From an uncultured bacterium (GTDB lineage: Bacteria; Patescibacteriota; Minisyncoccia; UBA6257; 2-01-FULL-56-20), in the NCBI GenBank assembly GCA_963719425.1, contig OY970382.1, forward strand, positions 7,888 to 71,887: DNA of 64,000 bases, written 5' to 3'. This document shows, one piece after another, positions 23,513 to 28,508 of the stretch. Both the position numbers and the translations under genes were made by a program. The notes below the pieces were generated by a model. It searched no databases. It worked only from the letters and a program-made list of their open reading frames with translations, and was not told the origin of the DNA. The first letter of the stretch is position 1, and each line of letters starts with the position of its first letter.

Positions 23513-24279
23513 ATTCGTGCAAACTTCGTAATTTCACAGAAGATTCATCAGTGATTGGTTTGTAACAACCAGTTGCTGGGAGAATCTCTCCGAATTGTAG
23601 AGTCGGGGAAGGAATAGTAGAAGCTCTGCATCATGTTTTTTGCCATCGCATTTTGGCAAATCCAATTTCTTACGATCGGCAGAGCAAAAAGTCAGCATTG
23701 GGATGGTTGGCATTTCCGTCGCAAGACGGATCTCAATAAGGGCGAATGGTGGATGCCTTGACTAGAAAAGGCGATGAAGGACGTGGCGTAGCGACGATAC
23801 GCCTCGGGGAGGTGCGTAGCAACCTGTGATCCGGGGATGTCCGAATGGGGAAACCTAATTACGTAAACCGTAATTGTTTCGGCGCAAGCCGATTCGCGTA
23901 CCTGGCGAAGTAAAACATTTCAGTAGCCAGAGGAACAGAGAACAAATCAGTTTATTCCCTTAGTATCGGCGAGAGAAAAGGGAAGGGCCCAAACTAAGGT
24001 TCTGATTTTTTCGGAATCTTGGGGTAATAAGAGAAAGACGCTGTTTTGCCGGTCGCCGAGCTTCCGTATAATCGGGACTTCGGCGATTGGTGAAATAAGG
24101 AGGAGTCAAAAAATCGTTGGTTAGCCAAAGCCGGCTGGAAAGCCGGGGCCAAAGCGGGTGATAGCCCCGTAGGCGAAAACTTACGATCTCCTTAGTTTTT
24201 CAACTTGAGTACTTCGGGGTAAATAAGTCCCGAAGGAATTTGCCTGTACTATCAGGCAAGGCTAAATACTTTTCTAGAT

Positions 24280-24316
<37 letters not shown>

Positions 24317-25100
24317 CAGGCCGGCGAGGCCGTTGAAATAGAACCTGAAACCATTTGTCTACAAGGAATTGAAGCTCCAAGTGCGGATGCAGCAATGCGT
24401 TCGCGCGGGGCGACAATGTGCCTATTGAAGAATGAGCCAACGACTTATCTTGTGTTGCTTGTCTAAACGCGCATAGCGTGCAGGCATAGCGAAAGCGAGT
24501 CTTAATAGGGCGTACATCCCACTCAATTTATTGGGTGGGATCGCAGCACAAGGTAGACCCGAAGCCAGATGAGCTTGCCTTGGCCAGGGTGAACCTCGGA
24601 GAAATCCGAGGGGAGGCCCGAACTGGTGAGTTGTTCAAAACTCTCGGATGAGCTGAGGTAAGGAGTGAAAAGCTAATCGAATTTGGTAATAGCTGGTTCT
24701 CTCCGAAATAGTTTTAGGACTAGCGGTGCGGAAAATCTTGCGGGGGTAGAGCACTGGATGATCTGTAAAGGCCGAAAGGCCGACAGATCAATCAAACTCC
24801 GAATACCGCAGGCGGATCCCGCACTAGTCAGACTGCGGGGGCTAAGCTCCGTGGTCGCGAGGGGAAGAGCCCAGACCGTTATCTAAGGTCCCCAAATCCA
24901 TGCTAAGTGTGAAAGGTAGTCATCACCCATAGACAGATAGGAGGTTGGCTTAGAGGTAGCCATCCTTTAAAGAGTGTGTAACAACTCACTATTCGACGGG
25001 TGGTGGCGCCGAAAATGTACCGGGGCTAAGCATGGTACCGAAGATACGGATTCGCTGACTTCATTGAGGAAAAATTTGTTCTTTGATTTGCGGCTTTGTG

Positions 25101-25173
25101 TGACGCGTAGCTCAGTTGGTAGAGCATCCGACTCTTAATCGGAAGGTCGCGGGTTCGAACCCCGTCGCGTCCA
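25101..25173 (+). tRNA. tRNA-Lys (CTT) embedded in the 23S IVS
   Basis: D-arm GCTCAGTTGGTAGAGC; anticodon arm TCCGA-CTCTTAA-TCGGA; T-loop TTCGAAC; acceptor has a T1:C72 mismatch; CCA not encoded. Confidence 0.6.
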
Positions 25174-25210
25174 CCCACCGTCTTTGATGGTGGAGAGAAA
25201 GCTCATGTGT

Positions 25211-25355
25211 CGGAGCGTAGCACAAGGGTAGTGCGCCTAGATGATCTTAAGTCTCCGGACCGTCAAAAGGATTTATGAATGACCTTTTGGCCCGCCGGCA
25301 GCGCGAGGTCTGTGCAACTAGGAGGTTGCAGGTTCAAGTCCTGTCGCTCCGACCA
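25211..25355 (+). tRNA. tRNA-Ile (GAT)-like gene interrupted by a ~70-nt insertion in the anticodon loop
   Basis: Acceptor CGGAGCG/CGCTCCG plus A73 and CCA; D-arm GCACAAGGGTAGTGC; anticodon stem CCTAG (25236-40) pairs with CTAGG (25318-22); loop ends ATGAT...AA would reconstitute ATGATAA; T-arm GCAGG-TTCAAGT-CCTGT. Confidence 0.4.
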
Positions 25356-26116
25356 AAAGTTTTGAGCGAGGCGTGTCGACACTATACTGTCGCGCGCCTC
25401 GCCTCCTCAATGAAGTCAGTGAGTGGTAGGAGAGCATTCGTACTGCAGTGAAGCCCGACCCGCGAGGGCGAGTGGAGCGATACGAAGAGAAAATGTTGGC
25501 ATGAGTAACCACAATCCCAATGAGAAATTGGAACCCCGAAAATCCAAGGTTTCCGTGGCACTGGCAATCAACCACGGGTTAGGCGATCCTAAGGCAATGG
25601 CGAAAGCCGCAGCTGATGGCATGCTGGTTAATATTCCAGCCCTCCTTTGTGATTATCCGTCGTGTGCGAAGGAAATAGGTGCGTATGCCTTATTGGTTTG
25701 GTATCGCTGGTCCGAAGTTCAACAAGGATCGGCGGAAGGTGAGGAATTTACCTCATCAACACGCATGAAGAGCCTTCCAAGAAAAGCGCGGCGGTTACGT
25801 TGCAGAGGATCCGTACCGTAAACCGACACAGGTGGATAGGGCGAGAAGCCCAAGGGGAACGAGTGATTTGCCTCTAAGGAACTCGGCAAAAAAGCGGCCG
25901 TACGTTTGCTATATGGCCTGATCTTCCTTAACCGGAAGATCCGCAGCGAAAGTTTCTCTGGCGACTGTTTACCAAAAACACAGCTCCCTGCTAACTCGCA
26001 AGAGGATGTATAGGGGGTGACGCCTGACCGATGCGAGAAGGTCAAGGTTGGGAGTGCCGTGCCGCAAGGTGCGGGACCCACTGACTCAAGCCCTCGTCAA
26101 TGTCAGCGATAACTAT

Positions 26117-26832
26117 AGACATAACGATTGTAGTTATAAAATCTGGCTATATGCTGGAAACTCTGTGTATCTGACATTACGGTATTTAATGAAAATTTTA
26201 TCCAAATTTAATTTTCATGTGGTACCGTGAAAATATGATCAGTGCAGACAATCAGCAGGAAAGGCTTTGTGGCATTGGTTGGTATCTTGCCGGCTTCGTT
26301 GATGGAGAGGGAAGTTTTAATACTTCTCTCCGAAAAGGAAATGGGCACCGCCTCGGATGGCAGGTGCAATTAACCTTCAATGTAGCCCAAAGGGATATCA
26401 GCAACCTGGAATTGTTAAAACAATATCTAGGATGCGGACGATTACAATATCGTAAAGATGGAGTACATTACTTCGTCGTGAGCGATTACCGTTCGATTAT
26501 TGATCGCGTAATACCGTTCTTTGAGAAATTCACGTTTTTCTCCGCTTCCAAGAAGAAGAATTTTTCTCTATTCAAGCAAATTGCATTTCTGATGGGTCAA
26601 GGAAAACATCTTGATCCGGCGGGATTGCAAGAAATTATTGCAATTAGGGAATATTTGAACGAGGGAAGAGGAAGGACGCGGAAATATAACAAAGACGATA
26701 TCACGATCGACCACAAAGAATCCTCAGAGACTATACGCCGGAGTTCATCAATGGTGATGGACAAGATATAGTCCGATCTCATGGGCGACCATGAGGATCC
26801 CGCTTAAAAACGAGCGAGTGATAACGTAAAAG
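26117..26832 (+). mobile_element. Group I intron at the 23S L1917-equivalent site, carrying a LAGLIDADG homing endonuclease gene
   Basis: 5' exon ends AACTAT(U); intron ends in G; the flanking exons AACTAT|AATCGTTCTAAGGT align to E. coli AACUAU|AACGGUCCUAAGGU. Confidence 0.6.
26235..26771 (+). CDS. LAGLIDADG homing endonuclease (single-motif, I-CreI/I-CeuI-like)
   Basis: Motif LAGFVDGEGSF; ~180 aa; lies inside the rRNA intron. Alternative start at 26217. Confidence 0.8.
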   Translation: MISADNQQERLCGIGWYLAGFVDGEGSFNTSLRKGNGHRLGWQVQLTFNVAQRDISNLELLKQYLGCGRLQYRKDGVHYFVVSDYRSIIDRVIPFFEKFTFFSASKKKNFSLFKQIAFLMGQGKHLDPAGLQEIIAIREYLNEGRGRTRKYNKDDITIDHKESSETIRRSSSMVMDKI

Positions 26833-26846
26833 AATCGTTCTAAGGT

Positions 26847-27083
26847 GGAATTGGTACTGCCTTAGTAAAACCTAACTATATGCTGGAACACCCGCGCATA
26901 TCAGAGTACCGAAAGGTGACAATCTCTGATCGAAGCGGACAATCAGCAGGAAACTTCACGGGAAGGATCCTCAGAGACTACACGTTAGGATCGCCGCAAG
27001 GCGATAAGATATAGTCCGAACTGCATAACGATATGCAGAGCCAAGCAGAAATGTTTTGGCCAACAAAAGTTGTAACACGTTCG
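26847..27083 (+). mobile_element. Short ORF-less group I intron at the L1931-equivalent site; a paralogue of the L1917 intron with the endonuclease gene deleted
   Basis: 5' exon ends TAAGGT(U); intron ends in G before AGCGCAATTCC (E. coli AGCGAAAUUCC). Shares blocks CTATATGCTGGAA, GACAATCAGCAGGAAA, ATCCTCAGAGACTAYACG and AGATATAGTCCGA with intron 1 in the same order. Confidence 0.5.
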
Positions 27084-27780
27084 AGCGCAATTCCTTTTCG
27101 GGTAAGTTCCGAAGCGCACGAAAGGCGTAACGACTGGAGAACTGTCTCGGAGGCAAGCTCGGTGAAAATGCGATTCCCGTGAAGACGCGGGATACCTGCA
27201 GCGGGACGAAAAGACCCCGGAAGCTTTACTGCAGCTTGGTATTGTCTTTAGGATCTTGATGCGTAGCGTAGTGGTGAGGATTTGAAGCCGCGCTCTCGGG
27301 TGCGGTGGATCCGACAATGAAACAGCCATCTTTAAGATTTTAAAGACTAACTGATGTGGAAGTGCGCAAGCATAAACCATATCAAGACAGTGCTTGGTAG
27401 GCAGTTTAAATGGGGCGTTTTCCTCCAAAAGAGTAACGGAGGAGTTTATTAAGGTCGGCTTAGCCCGGATGGAAATCGGGCAGGACGTGCAAACGCAAAA
27501 GCCGGCTTGACTGCGAGACCTACAAGTCGAGCAGGTGCGAAAGCAGAAGTTAGTGACCCGACGGCTATGTTCATGCGTGTTTTACTACGTGCATGAATTC
27601 TTGATAGAAAGGCCGGAGACACCGGATAAAAGCTACTCCGGGGATAACAGGCTGGTGAAGTCCGAGAGTTCCTATCGACGACTTCGCTCGGCACCTCGAT
27701 GTCGGCTCGCGACAGCGCCCGGGTGGAGAAGCTCGGAAGCGTTTGGCTGTTCGCCAATTAAAGTCGCACGTGAGCTGGGT

Positions 27781-28102
27781 GAGTGAACAACACTTCAAAT
27801 GAGCCCAGCAATCCTTTACACGAGGCTCGATTGTGTCCCAATCGAGAGAAAACAAAAAAGGAAAATAAATTGACTCATAACGGCGAAGTCCTCAGAAAGG
27901 ATAATGCCGTGGGAAGGTTGCGGTTTTTTTCCAGGCGCTCTTTTTGCGCCAAGAGAATCGTGAACCCCCGTAACGACTTGATCGTTTATGCGATCGGAGC
28001 GAAAAGATGGGAAGATCGTCTTCTCGCTAAAACGTCAGTCCTTGCGATTGGAATAGCAAGGAAAGGAATAGTCTAGTGCTCTTAGCAATAAGAGGAACAT
28101 TG
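27781..28102 (+). mobile_element. ORF-less group I intron at the L2593-equivalent (I-CreI target) site of 23S
   Basis: 5' exon ends GAGCTGGGT(U); intron ends in G; 3' exon resumes TCAGACCGTCGTGAGACAGG (E. coli UUAGAACGUCGUGAGACAG). Confidence 0.55.
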
Positions 28103-28134
<32 letters not shown>

Positions 28135-28252
28135 TGCTGCAGGCGTTTACACTTGAGGGGAGTTGGCATTAGTACGAGAGGACTTTGCTGAACCTACCTC
28201 TGGTCTACCGGCTTTGGTACCAACTGAACTGCCGGGTAGCTATGTAGGGAAG

Positions 28253-28286
<34 letters not shown>

Positions 28287-28508
28287 ACCCCAAGATTAGG
28301 TGTGTGTGATTTCGTGGAAGACTACCACGTTGATAGGCTCCAGGTGTAAGGCCCGCAAGGGTTTCAGCCGAGGAGTACTAATAATCCCGCCAACCATCCC
28401 AATGCTGACTTTGTTGTGTTCGTTTCGCCGTCAAAACTCTGAAGCGAACACTCTCTGCTAACAAAAAGGAGTGAGTGCGCTATAACTTATAGCGCGCGAA
28501 ACGACCTT

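Follow-up and report, generated by a model that had tools for sequence, protein, structure and literature searches.

Two homologous group I introns around a 14-nt exon in a patescibacterial 23S rRNA gene, probably with separate histories

The stretch of DNA analyzed here, called the window below, comprises 64,000 nucleotides (nt) of contig OY970382.1 from a patescibacterial assembly (GCA_963719425.1) and contains a 23S rRNA gene of 4.7 kb, with an excess length of about 1.75 kb, three introns and an insertion in helix 45. The subject of this work is the pair of introns located after nucleotides U1917 and U1931 of the 23S rRNA (Escherichia coli numbering; sites L1917 and L1931), which are separated by a 14-nt exon. 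A sequence-only reading of the window had proposed that the second intron is a copy of the first that jumped to the neighboring site and lost its endonuclease gene. The elements concerned are arranged as follows.

23728-28401, forward strand: host 23S rRNA gene (Rfam LSU_rRNA_bacteria, 2029.8 bits, model positions 1-2925)
26117-26832, forward strand: intron 1, group I, L1917, 716 nt, with an endonuclease gene inside (large-subunit (LSU) rRNA alignment; U before, G at the end; covariance model R1, see below; Rfam Intron_gpI)
26833-26846, forward strand: mini-exon AATCGTTCTAAGGT, 14 nt, corresponding to 23S positions 1918-1931, i.e. the 3' strand of helix 69 and a linker (LSU alignment; compensatory changes)
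26847-27083, forward strand: intron 2, group I without an open reading frame (ORF), L1931, 237 nt (Rfam Intron_gpI; model R1; orthologue in the related locus L008)

Alignment of the gene to the LSU model places one insertion of 717 nt following ...UAACUAU and another of 241 nt following ...AUCGUUCU. The final ends were set by direct reading of the sequence together with the group I rule that a U precedes the intron and a G is its last base. The terminal G is found at 26832 in intron 1 and at 27083 in intron 2, and the 3' exon restarts with AGCGCAATTCC at 27084. The ends of intron 2 cannot slide because the flanking bases differ, and those of intron 1 admit a one-base slide, but only the L1917 reading ends in G. 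Positions 1917 and 1931 were assigned from the standard numbering of helix 69 (psi1911/1915/1917), since the E. coli rrl copy fetched for this purpose was offset by 12 nt and was not used. With the LSU-model alignment and this numbering, the two insertions lie exactly after U1917 and U1931. Hence alignment and reading both uphold what had been proposed about the layout: an insert of 716 nt after AACTAT, 14 nt of exon sequence and an insert of 237 nt, each insert following a U and ending in G.

The mini-exon differs from E. coli at three positions (1920 C>U, 1921 G>C and 1924 C>U), and the 5' exon carries the changes that compensate them, respectively 1910 G>A, 1909 C>G and 1906 G>A. In the helix-69 stem the mini-exon pairs with exon AGCGAU and, because the changes on both strands compensate each other, the stem is kept across intron 1. 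In relatives, too, this mini-exon lies between the tandem introns. The predicted presence of the mini-exon in mature 23S rRNA, as had been supposed, is thus supported by the compensated changes of helix 69. Two trivial accounts of the layout were considered and ruled out. A single intron with an internal duplication does not fit a mini-exon that is homologous to 1918-1931 and covaries with the 5' exon, nor inserts that each possess their own core and guide; an assembly artefact does not fit a tandem layout seen again in 25 independent assemblies.

Assignment of both inserts to group I was based on covariance models. Rfam Intron_gpI recognizes intron 2 with 64.5 bits (E = 4.5e-14 for the whole window; gathering score 50) and intron 1 with 28.6 bits over its 3' half only, a score under the gathering value because an ORF of about 470 nt splits the core. 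In the proposed check against Rfam the second insert thus lies above the gathering score and the first below it. The ends given by Rfam for intron 2 (26796-27038) were rejected as a local misalignment: P1/P2 is wrongly matched with a hairpin that belongs to the 3' end of intron 1, and the match halts at P9; the LSU and custom models give 26847-27083. The custom covariance model, R1, was built from an alignment (A2) of 11 ORF-less relatives, seven L1931 and four L1917 introns, with intron 1 left out and intron 2 in the training set. It detects the two halves of intron 1 with 70.1 bits (E = 1.4e-14) and 61.4 bits (E = 1.4e-12), and intron 2, as a training sequence, with 226 bits over 26840-27083; a scan of the 64 kb with R1 returned no match beyond these. 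From the same 11 sequences, taken from both sites, RNAalifold recovered P3, P4, P5, P5b, P6, P8 and P9, with both-sided compensatory changes in 25 of the 41 consensus pairs. P3 itself differs in a compensated fashion between the two introns of the window, UCUGGC/GCCGGA standing against CCUAAC/GUUAGG. P2 is absent, UAAAA and P3 coming straight after P1, and P5/P5a/P5b are found. The features that define the L1917/L1931 lineage (no P2, a complex P5 and an ORF in P6 that runs into P7/P3/P8) are all present. The two inserts belong to a single structural family of group I introns and their ribozymes are homologous; what is directly observed comprises the boundaries, the fold family, covariation, guide-exon complementarity, the protein family and phylogenetic placement.

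Each intron has its own guide for the 5' splice site:

26130-26135, forward strand: guide GUAGUU of intron 1 (3' strand of P1), pairing with exon AACUAU, with U1917 opposite G
26859-26865, forward strand: guide GCCUUAG of intron 2 (3' strand of P1), pairing with mini-exon CUAAGGU, with U1931 opposite G

Relatives of the two introns were gathered by means of the endonuclease, which gave 492 loci in GTDB genomes, of which 80 were kept, and more from metagenome contigs. The 80 loci carry mostly Patescibacteria or candidate phyla radiation (CPR) labels, with about a dozen others (e.g. Gammaproteobacteria, Bdellovibrionales); they are denoted here by L and three digits. Exon-intron parsing left 50 non-duplicate loci, and 53 L1917 introns and 28 L1931 inserts were used for the counts of guides and terminal bases. 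Locus frequencies in this sample are biased because the loci were reached through the endonuclease. The guides are specific to the site: GTAGTT occurs within the first 40 nt of all 53 L1917 introns and of none of the 28 L1931 inserts, and a guide of the type GYYTTAG is carried by 20 of the 28 L1931 inserts and by no L1917 intron (0 of 53). A terminal G is present in 42/53 L1917 and 21/28 L1931 inserts. The last base is A in the other eleven L1917 inserts. In five inserts after U1931 (L017, L018, L019, L021 and L024) the core is complete and the endonuclease is of the L1917 type, yet these inserts start with TTCGC..., carry no GCCUUAG guide and finish in T instead of G. In these oddly ended inserts, five at U1931 and eleven at L1917, the splice sites may lie a few bases away or be degenerate.

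Intron 1 contains an intact-looking reading frame, which had been recognized as a LAGLIDADG endonuclease gene, an identification that the domain search confirms.

26217-26771, forward strand: LAGLIDADG homing endonuclease ORF, 184 amino acids (178 from the second ATG, at 26235; Pfam LAGLIDADG_1)

The product matches Pfam LAGLIDADG_1 (PF00961; E = 4.5e-21) over residues 24-122. It has one motif, LAGFVDGEGSF, and the acidic residue and domain size (about 160-190 amino acids) of the single-motif class. The database holds 2400 homologues, the best of them 81% identical, and in an alignment of 27 sequences (A1) the protein keeps 37 of 37 invariant positions. The nearest solved structures are domains of I-SmaMI and I-OnuI and, besides these, single-motif enzymes of rRNA introns. 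Endonuclease activity of the protein and its target are predicted; the CPR enzyme that has been assayed, I-ShaI, is distinct from that of the window (PMC11270868). The ORF is placed in the P6 loop and spans from upstream of P4' to P7', so its frame passes through core RNA and translates it into the conserved peptides ADNQQER (P4'/P6), SSETIRQ (J6/7-P7) and KI-stop (P7').

The correspondence between the two introns can be followed block by block through the core:

26247-26262, forward strand: intron 1, GACAATCAGCAGGAAA (P4' and start of P6), nearly invariant in A2, aligned to Rfam AAuCCGCAGCCAA and translated as ADNQQER
26265-26272, forward strand: intron 1, 5' strand of the P6 extension, CUUUGUGG, closing the ORF-bearing loop, a perfect complement of CCACAAAG
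26711-26718, forward strand: intron 1, 3' strand of the P6 extension, CCACAAAG, complementary to 26265-26272
26720-26737, forward strand: intron 1, ATCCTCAGAGACTATACG (P6', J6/7 and P7), invariant in A2 and fitting the Rfam consensus
26764-26776, forward strand: intron 1, AGATATAGTCCGA (P7'), with the ORF stop TAG inside at 26769-26771 (sequence reading, Rfam alignment, A2)
26938-26953, forward strand: intron 2, GACAATCAGCAGGAAA (P4' and start of P6; sequence comparison, A2)
26967-26984, forward strand: intron 2, ATCCTCAGAGACTACACG (P6', J6/7 and P7; sequence comparison, A2)
27007-27019, forward strand: intron 2, AGATATAGTCCGA (P7'; sequence comparison, A2)

In intron 1 the P6 extension is a stem of 8 bp around a loop of 438 nt, and intron 2 has a clean hairpin, GGAAACUUCACGGGAAGGAUCC, as its P6 loop. 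The four blocks that the two introns were said to share in the same order (GACAATCAGCAGGAAA, ATCCTCAGAGACTAYACG, AGATATAGTCCGA and CTATATGCTGGAA) are indeed common to both, but their interpretation as first and last codons of a lost endonuclease gene fails. The blocks form the P4/P4', J6/7-P7 and P7' core, are identical or nearly so in 11/11 aligned relatives from both sites and agree with the Rfam consensus. They resemble codons because the ORF of the P6 loop reads into the core, and several homologues of the endonuclease begin downstream of the first of them (ADNQQER). Being invariant in the whole family, the blocks are therefore uninformative about any special kinship between these two introns, which diverge in the variable parts (P1 guide, P3, P5, P8 and P9). 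The arithmetic of lengths needs a small correction: 716 - 456 is 260 and not 237, and part of the difference is an extension of P5, 41 nt longer in intron 1, that lies outside the ORF.

The relationship of the two introns was then examined by pairwise comparison and by trees. A neighbor-joining tree on the raw core alignment of 854 columns was dropped as too noisy; the one used was a neighbor-joining tree with 200 bootstraps on 218 well-aligned columns, with the guide and the P6 loop excluded. The pairwise comparison that had been suggested reveals no special closeness: over the core, intron 2 shows an identity of 0.653 to its neighbor, which ranks 26 among the 50 L1917 introns (median 0.654), and their Jukes-Cantor distance on the 218 columns is 0.56, ranking 16 of 48 (median 0.60). 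In 100% of the bootstraps intron 2 falls together with its L1931 counterparts from L006, L007 and L008, and, likewise in 100%, intron 1 joins its L1917 counterparts from L006 and L007. A clade uniting the set of intron 1 with the set of intron 2 appears in 0/200 replicates, and intron 1 is among the five L1917 introns nearest to intron 2 in only 2/200. A tblastn search for an endonuclease remnant in intron 2 returned none, the only matching peptides being those that overlap the core. The derivation of intron 2 as a recent, cut-down copy of intron 1 is hence not supported.

The comparison with close relatives points instead to an older residence. Orthologues of intron 2 at L1931 occur in three related genomes with 90-94% identity, and those of L007 and L008 are, as intron 2, exactly 237 nt long. 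Between the window and L008, identity is 93.7% for intron 2, 87.8% and 91.3% for the flanking exons and 78.4% for intron 1. Intron 2 is conserved at least as well as the rRNA, and therefore the ORF-less intron tracks the 23S gene and intron 1 has a different history. This pattern suggests that intron 2 has been inherited vertically with the rRNA gene.

The account that we favor, with good though not complete confidence, is that the single 23S rRNA gene of this Patescibacteria (CPR, Paceibacterota/Minisyncoccia-like) bacterium houses two independent P2-less group I introns at classical rDNA sites, of which intron 1 is mobile and intron 2 is an old, vertically inherited resident of L1931 that does not derive from intron 1. 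Each intron would find its own 5' splice site by pairing of GUAGUU with AACUAU and of GCCUUAG with CUAAGGU, and each would be removed by the standard two-step, guanosine-initiated self-splicing, with AACUAU-AAUCGUUCUAAGGU-AGCGCAAUUCC as the expected ligated product. Both events would have to finish with ligation, because without the mini-exon helix 69 would lack its 3' strand. Intron 1 would be the mobile partner, with a reading frame that goes from the P6 loop through P7, P3' and P8 to a stop in P7', and its endonuclease, presumably a homodimer, would cut intron-less 23S rDNA near 1917 and so bring about homing. Intron 2, as an orthologue of the related L1931 introns, would be maintained by purifying selection for splicing and by vertical descent, any former cargo in its P6 having been lost before the split from L007 and L008.

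Several points weigh against this account. The sampling through the endonuclease biases frequencies among the relatives, and support for the deeper branchings of the intron tree is weak: a clade of intron 2 with endonuclease-bearing L1931 introns reaches 37-41% and includes an L1917 intron, that of L066. With branches this weak, the L1931 lineage may ultimately descend from an L1917-type ancestor or the L1917 lineage from an L1931-type one. Intron 1, split by its ORF, falls short of the Rfam gathering score, and Rfam ends intron 2 before its true 3' end. Just upstream of its LAGLIDADG helix the endonuclease of the window is missing about 10 residues that are present in most homologues, and it could be impaired. 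Finally, actual splicing and ligation of both introns are predictions, drawn from the sequence features described above.

The diversity of the relatives bears on how these introns gain, lose and exchange their cargo. Among the 50 loci, 18 have an endonuclease-bearing L1917 intron and an L1931 insert, seven show the mirror arrangement (ORF-less L1917 and endonuclease-bearing L1931) and 25 are occupied at L1917 only; tandem introns are thus present in 25/50 parsed relatives. The P6 of L1931 introns carries no cargo in the window, L007 and L008. In L006 (4162-4611) it contains a strongly folded, non-coding insert of 213 nt (minimum free energy -93.7 kcal/mol) within a core that differs from that of L007 by only about 5 bases; in L002 the cargo is about 300 nt of non-coding sequence, and no homology was found between the P6 inserts of L006 and L002. 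In L004 (4745-5065) the P6 holds an ORF of 106 amino acids (MMGEVTDVLIFPHEPG...) without a LAGLIDADG motif, and in L011, L062 and L054 it holds enzymes of a second LAGLIDADG clade, 28-30% identical to the enzyme of the window. When ORF-less and mid-size introns were searched by tblastn for endonuclease remnants, intron 2, L002 and L006 gave none and the only positives were L060, which keeps the C-terminal 22 codons of an L054-type enzyme (68% identity, E = 2e-5), and L042, with a C-terminal remnant of the same enzyme clade.

In two of the loci the endonuclease appears to have changed site. L014 (3425-4199) and L025 (416-1164) have ORF-less L1917 introns of 237 and 245 nt, and an L1931 intron with an endonuclease of the L1917 family and a mosaic ribozyme. 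In the L1931 intron of L025 the mosaic is as follows: its 5' core is nearest to L1917 introns of other genomes (L011, 0.82; L002, 0.80), its 3' part is nearest to its own L1917 neighbor (0.82) and its guide is still of the L1931 type. Overall, the two introns of L025 are each other's best match (0.774, rank 1/50), in a four-member clade with a bootstrap of 40%. These loci would represent an exchange of the parent-daughter type, although in another lineage and with the opposite polarity to that proposed for the window. At positions that are Trp in every homologue (IGWY, KWQV), the endonuclease genes of L014 and L025 read TGA, a sign that UGA encodes Trp in their host or donor.

Against this background, an ectopic transposition of intron 1 to a site 14 nt downstream, in this gene or its recent ancestors, with later loss of the endonuclease core of about 456 nt from the copy, is very improbable for the window, where it is largely refuted. 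It has in its favor that the ribozymes are clearly homologous, with a common architecture and common core blocks, that the position of the endonuclease is exactly the site of the short P6 hairpin of intron 2, and that exchange between the sites is known elsewhere in the family, in the L1931 introns of L014 and L025. Yet the blocks are family-wide invariants, intron 2 is as near to L1917 introns of unrelated genomes as to its neighbor by both measures, the uniting clade and the proximity of intron 1 to intron 2 are virtually never recovered in the bootstraps, the search for a remnant was negative, and the tandem pair with an L1931 intron of 237 nt already exists in L007 and L008, whose exons are 9-15% different. 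A distinct objection concerns the RNA: the inserts might be excised without ligation of the exons, or be retained, giving a fragmented or insert-bearing 23S rRNA in the style of RNase III intervening sequences or of Simkania. The same gene has an insertion of the RNase III type in helix 45, with a stem of 21 bp, and the organism may thus tolerate fragmentation; the L1931 intron of Simkania is reportedly left unspliced (Everett et al. 1999); and splicing and ligation in the window are themselves deduced from sequence. A free mini-exon of 14 nt, however, would need to keep its place in helix 69 with no covalent bond to the neighboring exons, and both introns have full cores, matching guides and a terminal G, and intron 2 is conserved like the rRNA, as expected if splicing is required. 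Such an outcome is improbable, if slightly less so than the transposition.

The favored account of two independent introns leaves room for different origins of the empty P6 in intron 2. This intron might never have had an endonuclease, the ORF-less ribozyme being ancestral at L1931 and the P6 loop being a landing pad invaded independently by differing cargoes. That close L1931 relatives hold very different contents in P6 (none, non-coding, a 106-residue ORF, two LAGLIDADG types) speaks for it, whereas the deletion derivatives at L1931 in L060 and L042 demonstrate loss as a route and the tree cannot polarize gain versus loss. Permanent absence of an endonuclease is a possible history, though less likely than not. 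A more ambitious idea, motivated by the exchange in L014 and L025, and still more tentative, is that the introns at L1917 and at L1931 of Patescibacteria form one ribozyme family that has repeatedly swapped P6 cargo and core segments between sites 14 bp apart, by recombination at the invariant blocks of 13-18 nt that flank P6, one endonuclease maintaining both. If this were true, a break at either site would co-convert the neighbor across the 14-bp mini-exon, the ORF-less partner would hitchhike, and the layouts of the window and of L014/L025 would be two states of the relay.

The 23S gene and its relatives have further features that are independent of the tandem introns. The helix-45 loop carries an insertion of about 360 nt (25057-25416) closed by the 21-bp stem, in the style of RNase III intervening sequences (fold z = -6.7). 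Inside it lie a canonical tRNA-Lys(CUU) at 25101-25175 (ARAGORN; Rfam tRNA 67.9 bits) and a tRNA-like element at 25211-25355, which ARAGORN, with its intron option, calls tRNA-Ala(UGC) with an insert of 70 nt in the anticodon loop and which is devoid of the G3:U70 pair expected of tRNA-Ala. A literature search brought up no account of tRNA genes lying inside 23S insertions, and these genes are the most unusual feature seen in this 23S gene, unrelated to the tandem introns. Among relatives, tRNAs within the 23S gene turn up sporadically. L002 (2532-2871) has the same helix-45 closing stem with tRNA-Val(CAC) as cargo, and L078, from Doudnabacteria, has a tRNA-Lys(CUU) at 2792-2864 in a different insertion of 515 nt, at a place equivalent to about 25930 of the window. 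In the closest relatives, L006 and L008, helix 45 is plain (about 34 nt), and in L007 there is a larger insertion in which no tRNA was detected.

A third insert, ORF-less and 322 nt long (27781-28102), follows U2584 in the peptidyl-transferase region (GGGU|UCAGACC) and ends in G. At 27805-27810 it contains GCCCAG, which resembles a guide and complements exon CUGGGU. With Rfam Intron_gpI it reaches only 19.2 bits (E = 0.016), and model R1 of the L1917/L1931 family does not match it; the insert is therefore probably a group I intron of another lineage. In L002 (3399-3746) and L004 (2524-2778) ORFs of the GIY-YIG type occur in a further 23S insertion, whose site in L002 is equivalent to 25919-25943 of the window, which is uninterrupted there. 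No 16S rRNA gene is present in the window within the 23.7 kb upstream or the 35 kb downstream of the 23S-5S pair, and therefore the rRNA genes are unlinked. Upstream of the 23S gene, at a distance of about 870 nt, there is a tRNA-Pro(CGG), as also in L006 and L008. The chief practical use of the description lies in annotation: at 4.7 kb, and interrupted by three introns as well as by the insertion in helix 45, this gene will be mis-annotated by naive rRNA or ORF callers.

The homing cycle of Goddard and Burt consists of invasion, fixation, decay of the endonuclease and loss of the intron. Its stages can be recognized at L1931 across the relatives, with endonuclease-bearing introns (L011, L062, L054), remnants (L060, L042), ORF-less introns (the window, L007, L008) and empty sites (L003, L010 and 23 others). 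The claim that the cycle is captured within this one gene is nevertheless not borne out, as the stages are distributed over lineages and no parent and daughter copies stand side by side. The comparative data give instead a cleaner view of the cycle at one site across lineages, and the relatives hint that an endonuclease can move between two neighboring introns.

Insertions in the 23S rRNA of CPR/Patescibacteria were reportedly noted by Brown et al. (2015). In a survey of 348 CPR 23S genes (Tsurumaki et al. 2024, PMC11270868), insertions are present in 82%, LAGLIDADG_1 is concentrated at 1917, 1931, 1952, 2593, 2604 and 2657, and the group I introns comprise 211 with an ORF and 222 without. Sites 23IS6-8 (1917, 1931 and 1952) of that survey resemble the window in the phylum-level host, the sites, LAGLIDADG_1 and the coexistence of ORF-bearing and ORF-less introns, and the part of the paper drawn on here contains no analysis of the kinship of L1917 and L1931 ribozymes or of endonuclease exchange between them. 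Group I introns in rRNA and tRNA genes are conserved across Patescibacteria (PMC13011429), and the window adds one example to the documented pattern in which CPR 23S genes contain several group I introns, some with LAGLIDADG genes and some without. In Thermotoga, according to PMC1995217 (citing Nesbo and Doolittle 2003), L1917 and L1931 introns with single-motif LAGLIDADG genes are self-splicing; they occupy the same 23S sites as those of the window, and the L1931 intron is vertically inherited within a clade. Unlike the window, each Thermotoga species listed there has one site occupied and all listed introns have an ORF (PMC1995217 Table 1). Another close parallel in layout is Synechococcus sp. 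C9, where one LSU gene contains introns at L1917, L1931 and L2593 (Haugen et al. 2007, PMC1995217). It shares with the window tandem introns at the same two sites and a single-motif LAGLIDADG gene, an L1917 ORF that begins in P6 and reads through the core, and P2-less introns with a complex P5 at both sites (PMC1995217). The introns of Synechococcus, however, are 743 and 666 nt long and both carry full endonuclease genes, whereas the L1931 intron of the window has 237 nt and no ORF; the third intron of the window follows U2584 and not 2593, and its host is of the Patescibacteria type.

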